A stretch of 6,020 bases of DNA, from the IMG/VR virus record IMGVR_UViG_2778261349_000007, positions 1-6,020 of that record. One strand, 5' to 3'. The number at the start of each line of letters is the position of its first letter. Position 1 is the first letter of the stretch. This document shows, in pieces, positions 1 through 6,020 of this stretch. This DNA is from a virus (lineage: Duplodnaviria > Heunggongvirae > Uroviricota > Caudoviricetes). Below the pieces are notes generated by a model, which did not search any database, was not told the origin of the DNA, and worked only from the letters and a program-made list of their open reading frames with translations. Both the position numbers and the translations under genes were made by a program.

Positions 1-1410
1 ATGAAACTGGCACCGAACGTAAAACGATTACCGAAAGACAAATACACCGATGCGATTATTTTTGCGGGTATTGATGCTCATTCATTCGCAGAGCATTACA
101 TCATTGCACAGGCCAAAAAAGCAGGCGATCCAGTCCCTCCCGTTTATCTGGGGCGTTATCAGTTAAGCGAACTGGATAACCTCCAGATTGTTGATGATGG
201 GCGATACAGGGCGACGGTGATACGCGCCGGAAATATTGAAGAGCCGCAGCTGTTAACCATCGCCACGAAACTGGCGATCGCCGGAGTCCAGGAGGCGCGG
301 CTACTTTCTGAAAATTTCGAATTGCTGGAGGAATGGAGCGACCAGCTTCCACGGCTTAGGGAGGCATGGGAACGCGGGGAAAGCCTGGTCATGAAAAAAA
401 TCCCCCAGCGAAAAACCACGCTACCGATGAGCGTTGGATCTACCGGATACGACACACAGCTTGATTACGTGGTAAAGGGGATTATTCCGGCATCGTCGCT
501 TTGCAGCATATACGGGGCGAGCGGTTCCTATAAATCATTCCTTGCCGGATCGTGGGCGTGTCACGTTTCCACGGGCCGCCAGTGGGGAGGCCGCAGGGTG
601 GCGCATGGCGCTGTTCTCTATGTGGTTGGTGAAGGCGGTATCGGCGTTCCGCGTCGTGTAAAAGCCTGGGAGGTTGTGCACGGTGAGCAGGTGAAAAATC
701 TGTATCTGGTAAACCGTCCCATCTTTCCGGCTGTCTCGCTTGATGTTGATGAACTGGTTATTGCTGCCAGTCAGGTGGAGAGGGAAACGGGTAAACCTGT
801 TCGCATGATTATTCTGGATACGCTGGCGCGTTGCTTTGGTGGGAATGATGAAAATGATTCCCGTGATATGGGGGCGTTTATCCGTGGTTGTGACGAACTG
901 AAACGGCGCACAGGGGCCACGGTGCTGGTGGTTCACCATTCCGGCAAGGATGAGACGAAAGGCGCGCGCGGTTCCAGTGCATTTCGTGCTTCGCTGGATG
1001 CTGAATACCGGATACGCAGAGAGGACGCAGGCAGCGAAGCGCTGGTTATCTCATGCACCAAAATGAAGGACGCGGAGGAACTCAAAGAAGCCGCATATGA
1101 CTTACGCGTGGTGGAGCTTTTTACCGACGCTGACGGGGAGTTAATCACGTCGCTGGTGGTGGTGGATAAGCCGCGCCCTCCCGTTGAACTGGAGCGCATC
1201 GAGGAGGCAGGGAACAAGACGGAGAATCACGCCGCGCTATGGCAGTGCATCAGAACACGAACAGCACACGGGGAGGCGTGCACTATCGCCCTTCTCCGCG
1301 ACGATATGAAAAAGCTGGGGTATGAGATGAAGCACTTCCGGCGCTGGCTGTACAAGCTGGAAAATGATGGCGTAATCGTTATTGATGGTGATGACGTGCG
1401 CCCGCTGTAA
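1..1410 (+). CDS. Replication initiator/helicase, RecA-like P-loop NTPase (RepA/AAA_25-like), 469 aa
   Basis: Long ORF with ATG at nt 1 and stop at 1408-1410. Walker A-like GASGSYKS (about nt 514-537), Walker B-like MIILDTLARCF (about nt 805-837), and VLVVHHSGKDE motif typical of RepA/DnaB-type replicative helicases of plasmids, phages and satellites. An N-terminal ~150 aa domain could be the origin-binding part. Iteron origin lies immediately downstream. Confidence 0.75.
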   Translation: MKLAPNVKRLPKDKYTDAIIFAGIDAHSFAEHYIIAQAKKAGDPVPPVYLGRYQLSELDNLQIVDDGRYRATVIRAGNIEEPQLLTIATKLAIAGVQEARLLSENFELLEEWSDQLPRLREAWERGESLVMKKIPQRKTTLPMSVGSTGYDTQLDYVVKGIIPASSLCSIYGASGSYKSFLAGSWACHVSTGRQWGGRRVAHGAVLYVVGEGGIGVPRRVKAWEVVHGEQVKNLYLVNRPIFPAVSLDVDELVIAASQVERETGKPVRMIILDTLARCFGGNDENDSRDMGAFIRGCDELKRRTGATVLVVHHSGKDETKGARGSSAFRASLDAEYRIRREDAGSEALVISCTKMKDAEELKEAAYDLRVVELFTDADGELITSLVVVDKPRPPVELERIEEAGNKTENHAALWQCIRTRTAHGEACTIALLRDDMKKLGYEMKHFRRWLYKLENDGVIVIDGDDVRPL

Positions 1411-1613
1411 AAAGTGGGGAGCAAAAGTGGGGAGCAGTGGGGAATTTAACAAAATTGAAACATAATTACCCACTTTCCCACCTGTATATACCCAAAAAAG
1501 TGGGGAGTAAAAAACATATTGAAAAACATAACGTTAGAATCACAAAAAAAAGAGGTGGGGAGACGGTGGGTAATTTCAAAAAGTGGGGAGCAAAAGTGGG
1601 GAGTGGTGGGGAA
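1411..1613. repeat. Iteron-type replication origin: about 9 direct and 2 inverted copies of AGTGGGGAG-like repeats flanking an AT-rich core
   Basis: Direct copies at 1413-1421, 1425-1433, 1435-1443, 1499-1507, 1553-1561, 1563-1571, 1582-1590, 1594-1602, 1605-1613 (AGTGGGGAG / GGTGGGGAG / GGTGGGTAA variants, 10-12 bp spacing within clusters). Inverted copies inside 1465-1480 (aattacccactttcccacc). AT-rich segment 1445-1550 between clusters. Sits directly 3-prime of the helicase gene. Confidence 0.7.
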
Positions 1614-1864
1614 TGAACAGAAAAACCAGAGATAAGACAGCGCCAAAATATAAAGCGTTAGACATGACAGAGCACGCTTTAAAGGTGGCAATCAGAACGA
1701 TAGACCGCCACGCGGGGGAAGGATACGCGAAAGAACATCCCGACCTGATAAGCGCATTCATGACCACAGCAGCGGCAAACTTTGCCACGCTGACAGAACG
1801 TGAGATTGCCGAAGCGGAACAGGTAACAACCATCAACGTTAAAACCGGAGAGGTGGAATCATGA
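1613..1864 (+). CDS. Hypothetical small protein (83 aa from ATG 1613; the ORF track starts at GTG 1583)
   Basis: ORF in frame from MNRKTRDK...; stop TGA 1862-1864 overlaps the ATG of the next gene (ATGA overlap at 1861-1864), suggesting translational coupling with ssb. Start overlaps the last iterons. No recognisable motifs. Confidence 0.5.
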   Translation: MNRKTRDKTAPKYKALDMTEHALKVAIRTIDRHAGEGYAKEHPDLISAFMTTAAANFATLTEREIAEAEQVTTINVKTGEVES

Positions 1865-2283
1865 CAGCACAGATAGCCGCTTACGGGCGGCTGGTGGACG
1901 ACCCGCAGGTAAAACAGACCAGCAAGGGCACACCGATGACGCTGGTTCGTATGGCGGTATCGCTGCCATGCAGCCAGGCACAGGACGGACAGGCGACGTT
2001 ATGGCTGTCCGTCATCGCATTTGGCAAGCAGGCCGACTTCCTGGCTAAACATCAAAAAGGCGACGTTGCCAGCGTATCCGGCACGATGCAGGTAAGCCAG
2101 TGGACAGGCCAGAACGGCGAAACGCGGCAGGGCTGGCAGGTTATCGCAGACAGCGTAATCAGTGCGAGAACGGCGCGACCGGGCGGCAAAAAAGGCCAGC
2201 AGGGGCAGGCTACTGACGCACTGAACAGGGCAAAACAACAGGCGGGTAACGATGATCCGTACGGGGATAACATACCGTTTTAA
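1861..2283 (+). CDS. ssb: Single-stranded DNA-binding protein (SSB-like OB-fold), 140 aa
   Basis: Translation aligns by eye to the E. coli SSB OB-fold (GRLVDDPQV..., WLSVIAFGKQADFLAKHQKGDVASVSGTMQVSQWTGQNGETRQ...) followed by a Gly/Gln-rich linker and an acidic C-terminal tip ...NDDPYGDNIPF resembling the canonical DDDIPF tail. Followed by a rho-independent terminator. Confidence 0.8.
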   Translation: MTAQIAAYGRLVDDPQVKQTSKGTPMTLVRMAVSLPCSQAQDGQATLWLSVIAFGKQADFLAKHQKGDVASVSGTMQVSQWTGQNGETRQGWQVIADSVISARTARPGGKKGQQGQATDALNRAKQQAGNDDPYGDNIPF

Positions 2284-2298
2284 GCAACGAGTGACAGA

Positions 2299-2321
2299 AG
2301 CCGGAGCAATCCGGCTTTTTT
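2299..2321 (+). terminator. Rho-independent terminator after ssb
   Basis: Stem agccgga (2299-2305), loop gcaa, stem tccggct (2310-2316), then a T run 2316-2321. Confidence 0.7.
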
Positions 2322-2370
2322 ACGGGTCCTCCTGGCGGGGTGGGCCTGAACACGGGGCGGAGGGGCGCGG
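2322..2370 (+). repeat. Degenerate cos-like repeat (cosQ-like acgggtcct retained, cosN core altered)
   Basis: acgggtcctcctggcggggtgggcctgaacacggggcggaggggcgcgg parallels the 4764-4812 cos copy (acgggtcctttccggcatatggacccgttacggggcggcgacctcgcgg), but the 12-nt GGGCGGCGACCT core is replaced by GGGCGGAGGGGCG. The preceding terminator hairpin is also near-identical to the one at 4741-4763. Confidence 0.5.
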
Positions 2371-2502
2371 AAAAAAGCGCATTTTTGTGGTTTTATCGTC
2401 ATCATCATCATGAGCGTAATTTATTGTTTTTAATTGTTTTGATGCAAAAAAGATGATGATTGTGGTTAATTTTCGTTCGACATCTTTGCAGGCAGATAAA
2501 AA

Positions 2503-2535
2503 AGCCCGATAAGGTCAGAGGAAACCTATCGGGCT
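2503..2535. other. Intergenic hairpin (9-bp perfect stem agcccgata / tatcgggct, 15-nt loop) flanked by an A run upstream and T runs downstream
   Basis: Stem arms 2503-2511 and 2527-2535. aaaaaa at 2497-2502 and tttt at 2535-2538 make it terminator-like on either strand. Could be a bidirectional terminator or the 3-prime end of a small RNA. Confidence 0.35.
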
Positions 2536-2616
2536 TTTGCATATGAGGTTTTTTTGGTGCACTGACACACATGATCGGGATAATCATTTCATAATTTGCA
2601 ACACAACTCAACATCA

Positions 2617-2644
2617 TTGCACAAAATGCAATCATGATTATAAT
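2617..2644 (+). promoter_or_regulatory. Candidate sigma70 promoter for the capsid operon (TTGCAC -35 at 2617-2622, 16-bp spacer, TATAAT -10 at 2639-2644)
   Basis: Near-consensus hexamers with 16-bp spacing, about 55 bp upstream of the first capsid-operon ATG (2701). Overlapped by palindromes (ATGATTATAATCAT 2634-2647 and the 32-bp palindrome 2642-2673). Sequence-only prediction. Confidence 0.45.
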
Positions 2645-2673
2645 CATAACTGGATGAACATCCAGTTATGATT
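2642..2673. promoter_or_regulatory. 32-bp perfect palindrome (15-bp arms AATCATAACTGGATG / CATCCAGTTATGATT, 2-bp spacer): operator or leader hairpin/terminator
   Basis: Left arm 2642-2656, right arm 2659-2673, exact reverse complements. Overlaps the candidate -10 and predicted +1. Followed by tttttt (2672-2677) and then the RBS AAGAGGA (2683-2689) of the first capsid-operon gene. Confidence 0.6.
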
Positions 2674-2700
2674 TTTTAAGTCAAAGAGGAATTTCTGACT

Positions 2701-2907
2701 ATGGCAGAAGAGAAAAAAGGCGGGGTGACCGTGTACATAAGCCCCGACATCGTGGAGGCGCTCAAGGAACGCCACCAGCAGAACGTAAAAGCAGGCATCG
2801 CAGCAGGACTTGATCCGCTGGCGATGGTTGAGCCGTCAACAGGCTGGCAGGTACGCGCCTATTTACGCGCGGCGCTGGGCATGAATCAGACGCATGGAGG
2901 TGAATAA
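2701..2907 (+). CDS. Hypothetical small protein (68 aa) immediately upstream of, and coupled to, the major capsid gene; possible scaffold-like or assembly factor
   Basis: RBS AAGAGGA at 2683-2689. Stop TAA 2905-2907 overlaps ATG 2907 of the capsid gene (TAATG). No recognisable motif; the function is inferred only from position. Confidence 0.55.
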   Translation: MAEEKKGGVTVYISPDIVEALKERHQQNVKAGIAAGLDPLAMVEPSTGWQVRAYLRAALGMNQTHGGE

Positions 2908-3962
2908 TGGCAGGCAAAGCAACGGCACTTAACACTAACCAGCTTTTCGCGTACCTGAATCGCGGGGATATTGCGGAATTTAAATTCAGTCCGCTGTTTA
3001 CCACGCTGTTTTTCCCGAACGTGGCGACATTCAACACCCAAAACATCATGCTGGACACCCTGGACATTGAAGAGGTTACGATGTCGGCGTTTTGTTCGCC
3101 TATGGTGGGTAGTCAGGTCCAGCGCGATAAAGGGTACGAAACCAGCACGATTAAACCTGGATACATGAAGCCGAAGCACGAAATCGATCCAACGAAAACC
3201 ATCATGCGCATGGCCGGAGAAGATCCGGCACAGCTTAACGACCCTACCTATCGCCGTATGCGCCTGATTACTGGCAATATGCGCCGCCAGGTAAACGCCA
3301 TAAAAGCGCGCGTGGAATGGCTGGCGGTAAATGCGGTAACGACCGGAAAAAACATCATTGAGGGCGAAGGCATAGAGCGCTATGAAATCGACTGGAAGAT
3401 ACCGGAAAAAAACATCATAGAGCAGGCCAAAGGCCGTAAATGGTCAGAGCAGGACAAAGAAACTCACGATCCAATCTATGATATTGAGCTTTATGCGGAT
3501 CAGGGCAATTGCCCCGCAAACGTCATGATTATGGGCGCTGAGGTATGGCGCACGTTACGCAGCTTTAAAAAATTCCGCGAACTGTACGATCTTTCCCGTG
3601 GTTCAGAATCCGCCGCAGAACTGGCCTGCAAAAACCTGGGCGAAGTAGTGAGCTTTAAAGGCTATCTGGGCGATATTGCCCTTATCGTCTATTCCGGCAA
3701 ATACGCCGACAGCGACGGCACAGAAAAATATTTCCTTGAGCCTGATTTGCTGGTCCTGGGTAACACCAACAATAAAGGGCTGGTGGCCTATGGTGCGATT
3801 ATGGATCAGGAAGCTGTAAGAACAGGCGCAACGCAAAACATGTACTACCCGAAAAACTGGATTGAGGACGGCGATCCGGCGATTGAGTACGTGCAGACGC
3901 ACAGCGCACCGCAGCCGGTTCCGGCAGATATTCGCAAATTTGTTACCGTCAAAATTGGTTAA
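2907..3962 (+). CDS. Major capsid protein, lambda gpE-like (HK97-fold), 351 aa
   Basis: Translation matches remembered lambda gpE along its length: FKFSPLFTTLFF (lambda FKFDPLFLRLFF), PGYMKPKHE (PGYVKPKHE), EDPAQLNDPTYRRMRLITGNMR (EDPQNLADPAYRRRRIIMQNMR), RGSES...LG.VVSFKGYLGDIALIVYSGKY, VLGNT..GL.AYG, YPKNW..GDPA, SAP. Length is close to gpE. Confidence 0.9.
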   Translation: MAGKATALNTNQLFAYLNRGDIAEFKFSPLFTTLFFPNVATFNTQNIMLDTLDIEEVTMSAFCSPMVGSQVQRDKGYETSTIKPGYMKPKHEIDPTKTIMRMAGEDPAQLNDPTYRRMRLITGNMRRQVNAIKARVEWLAVNAVTTGKNIIEGEGIERYEIDWKIPEKNIIEQAKGRKWSEQDKETHDPIYDIELYADQGNCPANVMIMGAEVWRTLRSFKKFRELYDLSRGSESAAELACKNLGEVVSFKGYLGDIALIVYSGKYADSDGTEKYFLEPDLLVLGNTNNKGLVAYGAIMDQEAVRTGATQNMYYPKNWIEDGDPAIEYVQTHSAPQPVPADIRKFVTVKIG

Positions 3963-3973
3963 CGGGGGATTCT

Positions 3974-4309
3974 ATGGACACTCCATACATTGAGTTATTT
4001 GCTGGCAGTCAGCAGGTATCAACGACGCTGGTACATTTTGCCGCTGATGCTGGCGTTATTCAGGAATTTACCCCGCTGATGCTGGCGGACAATGGTGAGT
4101 TTAAGCCGTGGGATGGTCAGGAATCTGGCAAGGCTGTTTATCTGACCTCGTACCCCGTGGACACGTCAAAGCAGAAATCAGCACAGTGTTACAAGACGGG
4201 GATATTTAATATCGCCGCCGTAAACTGGCCTGAGAGCGCCGACACTGACGCGAAAAAATGCGCCGCCTTTGCGGGTTCTGGCGTATCCGTTCAGCCGCTG
4301 GCGCGATAA
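3974..4309 (+). CDS. Head decoration protein, lambda gpD-like, 111 aa
   Basis: TPLMLADNGEFKPWDG, KTGIF...WPESAD..AKK.AAFAGSGVS align by eye to lambda gpD (TPLMLDTSSRKLVAWDG ... KSGTF...[21 protein letters not shown]). Size matches gpD. RBS GGGGGA upstream. Gene order E-then-D is reversed relative to lambda. Confidence 0.8.
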   Translation: MDTPYIELFAGSQQVSTTLVHFAADAGVIQEFTPLMLADNGEFKPWDGQESGKAVYLTSYPVDTSKQKSAQCYKTGIFNIAAVNWPESADTDAKKCAAFAGSGVSVQPLAR

Positions 4310-4321
4310 GCAGGGGGAACG

Positions 4322-4735
4322 ATGGCTACGAATGAAAGCATCATGGCGCTACCGCTGGCGAGTAAATTTAAAGCAGAAGCGCGGGCAATGGCTGACAGAG
4401 GTTTATCAACCTACGAGGCCGTATATCAACTCAACAGACTGGAAGAGCAGGACAAACCGCGCGCTGATGCGATTATGGCACTTGATGAATCTGGCGACTA
4501 TCAGCCGCTGCTACGTGCAATGGCAAACGTGCCTTGTATCGATGTTGGTACGGCTAAAAGCATCCTTAGCATGACCATAGAGCAGGAACGCCAGAAGGTT
4601 GCACCAGAGCTTACCGCAGCCTTTGAAAACTTTATGGACATGCACAGCCCGCAAGCCGTATCAGCAGGCATGGCATACGATGGCAGAAACCCGGGCGATG
4701 ACGGCGACATCGATCGCATACTGAAAACCATCTGA
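4322..4735 (+). CDS. Hypothetical protein (137 aa), last gene of the capsid operon; possible packaging/assembly accessory
   Basis: Good RBS (GGGGGA about 4312-4317). Ends 5 bp before a strong terminator. No motif recognised; no convincing by-eye match to lambda FI, FII or W. Confidence 0.65.
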   Translation: MATNESIMALPLASKFKAEARAMADRGLSTYEAVYQLNRLEEQDKPRADAIMALDESGDYQPLLRAMANVPCIDVGTAKSILSMTIEQERQKVAPELTAAFENFMDMHSPQAVSAGMAYDGRNPGDDGDIDRILKTI

Positions 4736-4740
4736 GACAG

Positions 4741-4763
4741 GCCGGAGAAATCCGGCTTTTTTT
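4741..4763 (+). terminator. Rho-independent terminator after the capsid operon
   Basis: Stem gccgga (4741-4746), loop gaaa, stem tccggc (4751-4756), T7 run 4757-4763. Near-identical to the terminator at 2299-2321. Confidence 0.7.
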
Positions 4764-4830
4764 ACGGGTCCTTTCCGGCATATGGACCCGTTACGGGGCG
4801 GCGACCTCGCGGTTTTTCGCTATTTATGAG
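4764..4830 (+). other. Lambda-type cos site, + orientation: cosQ-like (acgggtcctttccgg), cosN 12-nt core GGGCGGCGACCT (4796-4807), and the start of cosB
   Basis: gttacg-GGGCGGCGACCT-cgcggtttttcgctatttatga matches the remembered lambda cohesive-end region (GTTACG / GGGCGGCGACCT / CGCGGGTTTTCGCTATTTATGA), and ACGGGTCCTTTCCGG matches the lambda right-end cosQ region. Downstream (4831-4940) it diverges from lambda cosB, with no CCGTTCTTCTTC R3-like motif and a GGGTGGTGGTGGTGG run instead. It lies upstream of a Nu1-like gene, as in lambda. Confidence 0.75.
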
Positions 4831-4940
4831 CTTTTTCAGGGTGGTGGTGGTGGTTTTGTTGTTTGCTCTATCTTTATGAATAAAAAGGGAAAGATGCAAG
4901 CAATACACCAACCTGAAGCAGTAATTAAGTTGGTGTATTA

Positions 4941-5483
4941 ATGAAATCGCACCTGATGAACAAAAAAAACATGGCTAAAAGCTGCCGTGTAAGTGCGACA
5001 GCGTTCGACAAGTGGGGAGTAACTCCCGTTGAGCGTAAAGGCCGTGAGGCGTTTTATGATGTTGCCAGCGTGATAGACAATAGGGTTAACAATGCAATTA
5101 GCCAGCTTACAAACGGCAAAGGTGAGATTGATGATGATGAACTTTTACGAGTCAGGATCAGATTACTGACAGCACAGGCAGAGGCGCAGGAACTTAAAAA
5201 CGAGCGCGATCGCGGTGACGTGATTGATACAGAGTTTTGCATGTACGCGCTTTCAAAACTGGCGAGTCAGATTTCATCAATCATGGACAGCCTCCCGCTT
5301 ACTATGCAAAGGAACTTCCCACAGATTACCCCCGCCATGCTGGATAGGCTTAAAAGGGAAGTGGTTAAAGCCTGTAATGCCAGCGCAAAAGCTGCCGACA
5401 ACCTCCCGCAGATACTGGTTGCTTACCTGAATGAAACTACCGGAAACGTGCCGAAGAAGTTGCTACAGAAGAAAGGCGAGTAA
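4941..5483 (+). CDS. Terminase small subunit, lambda Nu1-like, 180 aa (start alternatively at ATG 4956)
   Basis: C-terminal two thirds align closely to remembered lambda Nu1 (LLTAQAEAQELKNERDRGDVIDTEFCMYALSKLASQISSIMDSLPLTMQRNFPQI vs LTRAQADAQELKNARDSAEVVETAFCTFVLSRIAGEIASILDGLPLSVQRRFPEL). The N-terminal DNA-binding region is more diverged (MNKKNMAKSCRVSATAFDKW... vs MEVNKKQLADIFGASIRTIQNW...). No clear SD upstream of either candidate start. Confidence 0.85.
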   Translation: MKSHLMNKKNMAKSCRVSATAFDKWGVTPVERKGREAFYDVASVIDNRVNNAISQLTNGKGEIDDDELLRVRIRLLTAQAEAQELKNERDRGDVIDTEFCMYALSKLASQISSIMDSLPLTMQRNFPQITPAMLDRLKREVVKACNASAKAADNLPQILVAYLNETTGNVPKKLLQKKGE

Positions 5484-5510
5484 CAGACGCGCAATTATTG
5501 AACAAAAATG

Positions 5511-5573
5511 AGAAAGGATCTGATAATGGCATTTTCTGGCTAAAATGCCTCGTGTCAGATCCTTTCTTTTTTT
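5511..5573 (+). terminator. Nested hairpin with T run downstream of the small-terminase gene (likely intrinsic terminator)
   Basis: Outer 13-bp perfect stem agaaaggatctga (5511-5523) / tcagatcctttct (5555-5567). Inner stem ggcatttt (5528-5535) / aaaatgcc (5542-5549) with loop ctggct. Followed by ttttttt (5567-5573). Confidence 0.6.
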
Positions 5574-5584
5574 AATGTTTTCAT

Positions 5585-5705
5585 TGTTAAACAATCTGTT
5601 ATAGAGAAGAAGAACGGATCTGACTTTTGCCAGAAAATTTTCATAAACAGATAAAATCCGCGAGGTCGCCGCCCCGTAACGGGCCATAATTCCAGGAAGG
5701 ACCCG
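5585..5705 (-). other. Second, complete lambda-like cos site in inverted orientation (cosQ-like, cosN, lambda-like cosB motifs on the minus strand)
   Basis: The minus strand reads cgggtccttcctggaattatggcccgttacg-GGGCGGCGACCT-cgcggattttatctgtTTATGAAAATTTTCtggcaaaagtcagatCCGTTCTTCTTCtct. cosN core is at 5663-5674 (forward aggtcgccgccc). TTTATGAAAATTTTC (forward 5633-5647) and CCGTTCTTCTTC (forward 5606-5617) match the remembered lambda cosB left-end sequence, including the R3-like element. It is convergent with the 4764-4830 cos, and the two flank the Nu1-like gene. Confidence 0.75.
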
Positions 5706-5738
5706 ACGACACCAGACTATCAGAACGATGGGGGCACA

Positions 5739-6020
5739 ATGACAGAAGCCGAACTACTGCGATTAATCCGTCGCGTTGCCGAAATCAGCCAGCAGGCTGA
5801 CGAACAGGCCACGCAGCCGGACAGCGTGACCGCCGAAAATTATGCGCGTGTGGTTGCTGAGGTGATGCGCCGTGACGGTATTGAGCTTAACGGCGTGGAT
5901 ATGCGCGACATACGGATCCGCGTTCTGGAAATGCTGGCCTACAATCGCCGCGTTGAACTGTATCGGGAGAAAGAAAAAATTACGTACCACTGGAAGAAGC
6001 CGGAGCGGTTACGGCGATAA
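5739..6020 (+). CDS. Hypothetical protein (93 aa)
   Basis: ORF with GGGGG SD-like run (5730-5734) 4 nt before ATG 5739; stop TAA at 6018-6020 (window end). No recognisable motif. Confidence 0.55.
   Translation: MTEAELLRLIRRVAEISQQADEQATQPDSVTAENYARVVAEVMRRDGIELNGVDMRDIRIRVLEMLAYNRRVELYREKEKITYHWKKPERLRR

Follow-up and report, generated by a model that had tools for sequence, protein, structure and literature searches.

Here we describe the control region of the capsid operon in a 6,020-nt stretch of DNA (positions 1 to 6,020 of IMG/VR virus record IMGVR_UViG_2778261349_000007; below, the window), which makes up the right half of an EcCICFT073-type Gram-negative phage-inducible chromosomal island (PICI), a satellite of Escherichia coli phages. 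The promoter of this operon is overlapped by a perfect 32-bp palindrome, the inner 20 bp of which form a predicted operator for LexA, the host SOS repressor. We consider it likely that this is a sigma-70 promoter repressed by host LexA at 2648-2667, and the SOS response probably turns on the genes behind it directly, as it does in the Staphylococcus aureus pathogenicity islands (SaPIs). The features of the locus are as follows.

Upstream of the promoter: genes for a RepA-type helicase and a single-stranded DNA-binding protein (SSB), from open reading frames (ORFs), Pfam and PHROGs.
2300..2321, plus strand: intrinsic-terminator-like hairpin GCCGGAGCAATCCGGC followed by T6, after the SSB gene (read from the sequence; a palindrome with 8-nt arms).
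2498..2538, both strands: strong hairpin GCCCGATA...TATCGGGC, preceded by A6 and followed by T4 (fold and inverted repeat).
2583-2601 and 2613-2631, plus strand: two tandem copies of about 19 bp, ATCATTTCATAATTTGCAA and ATCATTGCACAAAATGCAA, 30 bp apart (repeat search).
2617..2622, plus strand: -35 hexamer TTGCAC, a 3/6 match to TTGACA, with TTGC invariant in relatives.
2639..2644, plus strand: -10 hexamer TATAAT, a 6/6 match, after a 16-nt spacer (sequence and conservation).
2642..2673, both strands: the full perfect 32-bp palindrome, composed of the LexA-type box and flanking hexamers AATCAT and ATGATT (inverted-repeat search).
2648..2667, both strands: predicted LexA operator AACTGGATGAACATCCAGTT, CTG-N10-CAG, heterology index 6.81, at about -3 to +17.
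2649..2652, plus strand: predicted transcription start, 7 +/- 1 nt past the -10 and near 2651 (from the position of the -10).
2672..2677, plus strand: T6 run in the 5' leader, its first two T in the right arm of the palindrome; kept in relatives without the palindrome.
2684..2689, plus strand: ribosome-binding site (RBS) AAGAGG of the first gene (sequence; invariant in relatives).
2701-2907, plus strand: 68-aa protein, function not assigned, with its ATG at 2701 (ORF).
2907-3962, plus strand: lambda gpE-like major capsid protein (ORF, Pfam, PHROGs and the annotation of a near-identical island).
3974-4309, plus strand: gpD-like decoration protein (same four sources).
4322-4735, plus strand: 137-aa protein similar to the scaffold part at the C-terminus of a head protease (ORF, PHROGs).
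4741..4763, plus strand: terminator-like hairpin GCCGGAGAAATCCGGC followed by T7, at the end of the capsid operon (sequence).
4941-5483: Nu1-like small-terminase/Rpp-type gene, downstream of that terminator.

The promoter serves four genes, all on the plus strand (2701-4735), and two hairpins lie between it and the replication module. The hairpin at 2300-2321 is the first putative barrier between that module and the capsid operon; the one at 2498-2538, which folds at -21.2 kcal/mol (z -4.5) and is conserved in relatives, looks like a bidirectional terminator that would insulate the capsid promoter from upstream transcription. Given these upstream terminators, the operon needs a promoter of its own. 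The sequence-only reading, a first description made from the letters of the window, had placed a near-consensus promoter here, and both hexamers and their spacing are exactly as it gave them, with a -10 that matches at every position; "near-consensus" slightly overstates a -35 that matches at three. A consensus scan misses this promoter because it demands 4/6 per hexamer. The combination TTGnnn-16..18-TATAAT turns up in 14% of shuffled windows and in 1% of shuffles of the 417-nt intergenic stretch, and the promoter call is supported mainly by conservation: TTGC..-16-TA[TA]AAT recurs in relatives from E. coli, Salmonella and Edwardsiella whose capsid proteins are 64-68% identical, and the -10 is either TATAAT or TAAAAT, at the same 16-nt spacing, in all lineages that carry this promoter. 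Application of sigma-70 geometry to the -10 gives the predicted start near 2651.

Two other promoter assignments were considered and rejected. A leftward promoter using the minus-strand TATAAT (2642 to 2637) would have a -35 matching at only 2/6, and the relatives with TAAAAT keep a usable -10 on the plus strand only. An upstream promoter with CATAAT (2590-2595) as its -10, which would place the whole hairpin in the leader RNA, lacks both a -35 and an extended -10, and its hexamer is not conserved (CATGAT, CATATA).

The palindrome itself, including the T6 run that follows, is exactly where the sequence-only reading put it. Its arms, AATCATAACTGGATG (2642-2656) and CATCCAGTTATGATT (2659-2673), are 15 nt each and perfect, with AA between them. 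No other perfect inverted repeat in the window is as long, the runner-up having 8-nt arms, and the longest arm in 200 dinucleotide-preserving shuffles was 11 nt. The overlap with the -10 and the start also holds: the left arm begins within the -10, and the predicted start lies inside it. The two accompanying elements of that description, the palindrome ATGATTATAATCAT (2634-2647) and TTGCA-N5-TGCAA (2617-2631), are likewise present.

Inside the palindrome, a 16-bp CTG-N10-CAG frame lies within a 20-bp imperfect palindrome of the SOS-box type (consensus TACTGTATATATATACAGTA). To score it, we used the heterology index, obtained as an additive position matrix solved from 140 (sequence, index) pairs of E. 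coli K-12 in Table S1 of PMC12527982 (PSOSP); the solution is exact (rank 43), the held-out error is below 1e-4, and the 140 published values are reproduced. The index of 6.81 falls within the LexA-binding range, as do those of the relatives (5.41-9.61). In the same table the LexA-binding cluster extends to about 13.6 and accepted sites run from 2.4 to 12.1, including the first lexA box at 6.40, uvrA/ssb at 6.98, ruvAB (CGCTGGATATCTATCCAGCA) at 9.19 and polB at 12.09; the accepted E. coli boxes of the CTGGAT..ATCCAG type score worse than the site described here (ruvAB 9.19, CACTGGATAGATAACCAGCA 9.54), and only about 10 K-12 loci score 6.81 or lower. The remaining four CTG-N10-CAG matches in the window have indices of 22-25, and the expected number of sites with an index of 6.81 or less per 6 kb is 2e-4 with the composition of the window and 1e-3 with the local AT-rich composition. 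No strong LexA box was found elsewhere in any of the box-bearing islands scanned, each of which holds only one. In the near-identical island of E. coli 2013C-3181 (L001), the int-alpA spacer contains a weak LexA-like sequence, TACTGGATAAGTGCACAGAT (6124-6143), whose index of 12.15 is borderline by comparison with polB.

The position of the box would also suit an operator. It starts 4 nt past the conserved perfect -10 and ends 33 nt before the ATG, and it would cover the predicted start site. In Salmonella, SOS genes under tight LexA control have the box over the start site, with a mean index of 6.3 (PMC8072944).

To follow the element through related loci, we gathered these with anchors outside the palindrome. 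The downstream anchor AAGAGGAATTTCTNACTATGGC, which is unbiased with respect to the box, gave 94 loci with 49 unique promoter sequences, and more distant relatives were collected through the capsid protein. The related loci came from viral contigs, in which a 17-nt AT-rich anchor was effective; against genome contigs the same anchor gave random matches only, in unrelated phyla, and a search of genome contigs for relatives of the capsid protein found none. CTG-N10-CAG is kept in 93 of the 94 loci, the exception being a contig with a 1-nt insertion. Only three substitutions occur in the 16-bp core: G2656A, C2662A (which turns CCAG into the consensus ACAG) and a change of the central AA to TT. 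All of them leave the heterology index equal or lower, and G2656A and C2662A destroy pairs of the stem. Outside the core the picture is different. The outer arms vary, mostly without compensation: among the 49 unique sequences the pair 2647:2668 is mismatched in 21, compensated in 2 and a wobble in 3, and A changes to G at 2648 and 2649 with no change in the partner. Only about 27 of the 94 loci have DNA arms that are perfect over 14 bp or more, and by this comparison perfect 32-bp symmetry is not a feature of the family.

The distant relatives extend the same pattern. A Salmonella locus at 68% capsid identity (L007) has the promoter and the box GACTGGATGAAAATCCAGTA (index 7.98), with the outer hexamers kept at a 1-nt offset. 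A locus at 67% capsid identity (L248) has the promoter and the box GACTGGATGAACATCCAGTT (index 8.15), in which the 16-bp core is identical and the first base is changed from A to G; its right flank, GTTACT, is not complementary to AATCAT, and the outer symmetry is lost. In Lelliottia (L245, 59% capsid identity) a canonical box of unrelated sequence, CACTGTTTTTTCATACAGTT (index 7.57), lies 25 nt before the RBS region. The invariance of CTG and CAG in 93/94 loci, the unchanged core of L248 and the separate box of Lelliottia are the pattern of purifying selection on the positions that LexA would contact, and the latter two argue for LexA over the palindrome as such. Since the core is kept and the box recurs while symmetry and hairpin stability vary, the conserved feature is the LexA box. 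The suggestion of the sequence-only reading that the palindrome could be a high-affinity operator for a dimeric regulator, tying capsid expression to helper induction, is in substance supported, with two amendments: the regulator is most likely host LexA and not a protein of the helper or the element, and the operator is predicted to comprise the inner 20 bp, not the whole 32 bp, the outer arms of which vary. The extra 6 bp of symmetry on each side (AATCAT/ATGATT) is not part of the LexA site and belongs to a separate set of repeated hexamers.

On this interpretation, the promoter TTGCAC-16-TATAAT would start transcription near 2651, and in the undamaged cell a LexA dimer lying over the start site would block RNA polymerase. 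DNA damage activates RecA and leads to self-cleavage of LexA, the same SOS signal that induces lambdoid helper prophages. Cleavage would derepress the four-gene operon of capsid, decoration and scaffold-like functions, with no need for the helper or the island AlpA, and the transcript would end at 4741-4763.

Several points weigh against this interpretation. The -35 is weak, with TTG its only match. The box has CTGG/CCAG where CTGT/ACAG is preferred, which costs 1.4 index units per side. LexA leaves unexplained the conserved flanking hexamers, the invariant spacer and the few outer-arm variants that are fully compensated. Induction of EcCICFT073 is reported to depend on a helper and AlpA, and alpA expression to be SOS-independent (PMC6092414), a result that concerns alpA and not the capsid promoter. 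The L008/L009-type E. coli loci and Edwardsiella (L244) have the promoter (TTGCAA/TTGCAT-16-TAAAAT) and the T run, without the box and without the hairpin, and lineages with other upstream regions and promoters (L010/11, L246, L247, L249-251) also lack the box; with the box absent from several lineages, LexA control would be optional in the family. Several of the box-less lineages carry, after the decoration gene and in place of the scaffold-like ORF, a gene for a 114-145-aa protein with an AlpA domain (PF05930; L010/L011 6402-6746, L246 4403-4756, L247 4375-4812, L250 2902-3291 and L251 2901-3284), which may provide an alternative regulation of the module.

An alternative, akin to the leader terminator suggested by the sequence-only reading, is that the palindrome works at the RNA level. 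Its hairpin would terminate (intrinsically) or attenuate transcription coming from the replication module, and would be overridden by a processive antiterminator such as the island AlpA, acting like P. aeruginosa AlpA or lambda Q. Transcribed in full, the hairpin would have a folding energy of -17.7 kcal/mol (z -6.2), with U6 behind it. The Salmonella relative keeps inner and outer stems despite a 1-nt bulge (-14 to -16 kcal/mol), several of the left-arm changes yield G-U pairs, and a few variants are fully compensated. In addition, the island AlpA is a PF05930 protein, and in Pseudomonas aeruginosa a member of this family acts as an antiterminator in the manner of Q, from a DNA site that lies between -35 and -10 (PMC7969949). 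However, the left arm starts inside the -10. As transcription would start within that arm, the promoter's own RNA would lack most of it, and with it the full terminator hairpin, retaining only a 5-6-bp hairpin at its 5' end, 7 nt from the U run. The stem-loop, which is AT-rich (5 G-C pairs of 15), would be fully transcribed only by read-through from upstream, where two terminators already stand. Nor are pairing and stability conserved: the predicted stability spans -9.4 to -21.8 kcal/mol among close relatives and -2.4 to -6.1 kcal/mol among distant ones, the stem is interrupted in 56 of the 94 loci, and the core substitutions that break stem pairs keep or improve the LexA score. The outer stem is lost in L248, where the box is kept, the stem is also lost in L009 and L244, and the T run persists in lineages without the hairpin. 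In Rfam no family reaches its gathering score; the best is GcvB on the minus strand, at 23.5 bits vs 42, and this match is terminator-driven. A unit of the Q or AlpA type would also have a different layout, since the hairpin here overlaps the -10 and +1 and does not lie downstream of them, and the spacer motif is not common to the alpA promoter. A leader terminator requiring antitermination, in the style of lambda pR-prime/tR-prime, is accordingly not upheld as the main function, and we regard the terminator explanation as unlikely.

A secondary role of the palindrome, as a terminator of upstream read-through beside a LexA operator, is unlikely too. A bifunctional element with OR-logic, which we think quite unlikely, would go further: as DNA, the LexA box would let the promoter fire on SOS; as RNA, the hairpin and U6 would be a third terminator, which only polymerase modified by the island AlpA, in the role of a Q-like processive antiterminator, would pass. 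The LexA input would then serve induction of a resident helper prophage, and read-through from the AlpA-activated early operon would serve helper infection without DNA damage, with the AATCAT hexamers and the TTGCA-N5-TGCAA spacer element as parts of the second input.

The repeated elements around the promoter invite a further explanation, namely that the full 32-bp symmetry is the operator of some other dimeric or multimeric regulator (from the island, the helper or a non-LexA host factor) that reads AATCAT/ATGATT, the LexA-like core being incidental. Five such hexamers occur in 111 nt (at 2582, 2630, 2634, 2642 and 2668; region 2570-2680) vs 0.17 expected, two of them placed symmetrically around the box. 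The sequence over the -10, ATGATTATAATCAT, is palindromic in its own right; position 2647 changes jointly with 2634 in many variants and with 2668 in few; and the flanking hexamers are kept in Salmonella. Yet the two hexamers at the box, 26 bp apart from start to start (2642 and 2668), are too far apart for a simple dimer, and the flanks vary or are lost (the right-hand hexamer in L248) while the core is not. An incidental origin is very unlikely for a core with an index of 6.81 that is conserved at the positions relevant to LexA. The half-site AACTGGATG occurs at 0 mismatches across the whole island only in the two palindrome arms; the promoter elements likewise have no further copy in the island, and no candidate regulator was found. 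This explanation, too, appears quite unlikely.

That the palindrome is functionless, a product of chance or of template switching in AT-rich intergenic DNA, is extremely improbable: the inversion of the loop (AA<>TT) and the concerted double changes do, in our inference, resemble quasi-palindrome template switching, but the arms reach 15 nt vs a shuffle maximum of 11, the core is invariant over about 90 loci and several genera while neighbouring positions vary, and a LexA box appears independently in Lelliottia. The variants concerned, found in some viral contigs, have the central AA inverted to TT or both arms changed together (TA>GG with TA>CC), a pattern more suggestive of quasi-palindrome template switching in the DNA than of compensatory changes gained step by step.

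Apart from the LexA box, the promoter region holds a second conserved element. The tandem 19-bp element is nearly invariant in the 49 unique relatives; its second copy contains TTGCA-N5-TGCAA and overlaps the -35 and the spacer. The spacer motif ATGCAAT is invariant from E. coli to Edwardsiella, and Edwardsiella has two full 19-bp copies. This conservation points to the tandem element as a second regulatory input at the capsid promoter, the presumed site of a second regulator. Neither TTGCA-N5-TGCAA nor the spacer/-10 block occurs anywhere else in the whole island. The proposal that they are AlpA sites shared with the alpA promoter found no support; the spacer motif ATGCAAT is absent from the alpA promoter of the island. 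The half-sites of TTGCA-N5-TGCAA may resemble CytR octamers (GTTGCATT). The AATCAT/ATGATT hexamers create the overlapping palindromes AATCATGATT and ATGATTATAATCAT as well as the outer arms of the 32-bp palindrome, and GATAATCATT (2579-2588) and the stretch 2630-2648 may resemble the Fur-box consensus GATAATGATAATCATTATC.

The island to which the window belongs is well represented. Over positions 2400-2900 (501 nt) it shares 99.6% identity with an E. coli 2013C-3181 island, about 11 kb long and located between roxA and phoQ, which begins with an integrase gene and an AlpA-family gene and also encodes a RepA helicase and SSB. EcCICFT073 itself was found in NC_004431 at the same roxA/phoQ site, with an identical promoter and 32-bp palindrome before its capsid operon; the predicted start corresponds there to about 1,385,411-1,385,414. 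PICIs of the EcCICFT073 type are chromosomal islands of about 11 kb with int, alpA, a primase/helicase, capsid and decoration homologues, a Nu1/Rpp-type gene and lambda-like cos sites, and the island described here fits this type. At least 234 of the 5426 complete E. coli genomes contain the promoter region, in each case on the chromosome and without annotation, and it had no similarity to any record of the phage record collection. EcCICFT073 is the prototype Gram-negative PICI, in which c1499 and c1500 encode the homologues of the capsid and decoration proteins (PMC6092414).

Further observations concern the surroundings of the operon. The 137-aa ORF (4322-4735) has no match in Pfam; in PHROGs it aligns with the last ~75 residues, at the C-terminus, of the head-maturation-protease family (phrog_53, E 1.4e-8), and it may be a Nu3-like scaffold without the protease domain. 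The Nu1-like/Rpp-type gene, intact in the window (4941-5483), is annotated as frameshifted in the 2013C-3181 island (L001 14542-15083). The lambda cohesive-end sequence GGGCGGCGACCT occurs exactly on either side of it, at 4796-4807 (plus strand) and, oppositely oriented, at 5663-5674 (minus strand), with a chance expectation of 0.01. EcCICFT073 is reported to have two cos sites, and these two copies are probably their counterparts. The sequence after the first copy, CGCGGTTTTTCGCTATTTATGA, we take to be lambda-like. Near-identical terminator modules, GCCGGAG[C/A]AATCCGGC with a T run and then ACGGGTCC, follow the SSB gene (2300-2329) and the gene of the 137-aa protein (4741-4772). The second module precedes a cos site; after the first, ACGGGGCGGAGGGGCGCGG (2352-2370) has a loose likeness to the cos core and could be a degenerate cos duplicate.

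In every lineage the hairpin that precedes the capsid promoter is flanked by a long A run at 5' and by a short or poor T run at 3' (window 2498-2538, L007 4588-4630, L008 4583-4625, L244 2600-2635, L248 1115-1140), which makes it a better terminator for leftward, minus-strand transcription. The weak matches to Rfam families of the small-RNA type on the minus strand (GcvB, 23.5 bits) end at this hairpin, and no convincing leftward promoter was found.

A LexA-repressed capsid promoter would have close parallels. Operon I of the SaPIs, the packaging and capsid-remodelling module, is given as LexA-controlled in the work of Ubeda et al. (2007, Mol Microbiol 65:41), as cited in PMC6092414. Both cases concern a satellite of the PICI class whose morphogenesis and packaging module has its own LexA-site promoter, such that the signal that induces the helper would also activate the late module. 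They differ in that the SaPIs have a Firmicutes LexA motif and cpmAB/ptiA/terS, whereas here the host is Gram-negative, the motif is CTG-N10-CAG and the genes are gpE/gpD-like; moreover, LexA control is here predicted, and in some lineages only. With the E. coli SOS boxes of ruvAB (CGCTGGATATCTATCCAGCA) and CACTGGATAGATAACCAGCA the site shares the CTGGAT/ATCCAG half-site and the 16-bp CTG-N10-CAG frame, with an index within or better than the accepted range. Unlike chromosomal SOS boxes, the predicted site lies on a mobile element, and the perfect palindrome extends 6 bp beyond the box on each side. Colicin promoters have two overlapping LexA boxes just downstream of the -10; they resemble the present case in having a LexA operator over the start site on a mobile element, with a good -10, and differ in the number of boxes, which here is one. 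That mobile elements carry LexA sites, and that LexA can control the late module of a PICI, is already established. Lambda pR-prime/tR-prime with Q, and the P. aeruginosa AlpA system, are similar in the strong -10 before late genes, the conserved spacer between -35 and -10 and the hairpin with a U run, together with the AlpA-family protein of the island. In those systems the hairpin lies downstream in the transcript, whereas here it extends over the start and into the -10; at the capsid promoter no sigma-dependent pause element was identified, and the P. aeruginosa AlpA element, GGGACG-N5-GGTA (PMC7969949), differs from the spacer motif ATGCAAT of the window.

EcCICFT073 is the reference Gram-negative PICI, and expression of c1499/c1500 is not described in the literature that we searched. 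The two papers on EcCICFT073 mention LexA only in their reference lists, and in the literature searched for PICIs together with LexA or SOS boxes in Gram-negative bacteria we found only reference-list mentions of the SaPI paper; a description outside the literature searched is possible.

If the promoter is indeed repressed by LexA, the capsid module would be an SOS gene set, induced by DNA-damaging antibiotics even without a helper phage or AlpA. Mutants of the LexA box would provide a handle to force or silence the operon and so to learn the roles of its genes. The wiring would be modular, present in E. coli, Salmonella and Lelliottia lineages and absent elsewhere, where several lineages have an extra AlpA-family gene in the operon. 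Finally, Gram-negative and Gram-positive PICIs would, independently of each other, have placed their morphogenesis modules under one and the same host signal.

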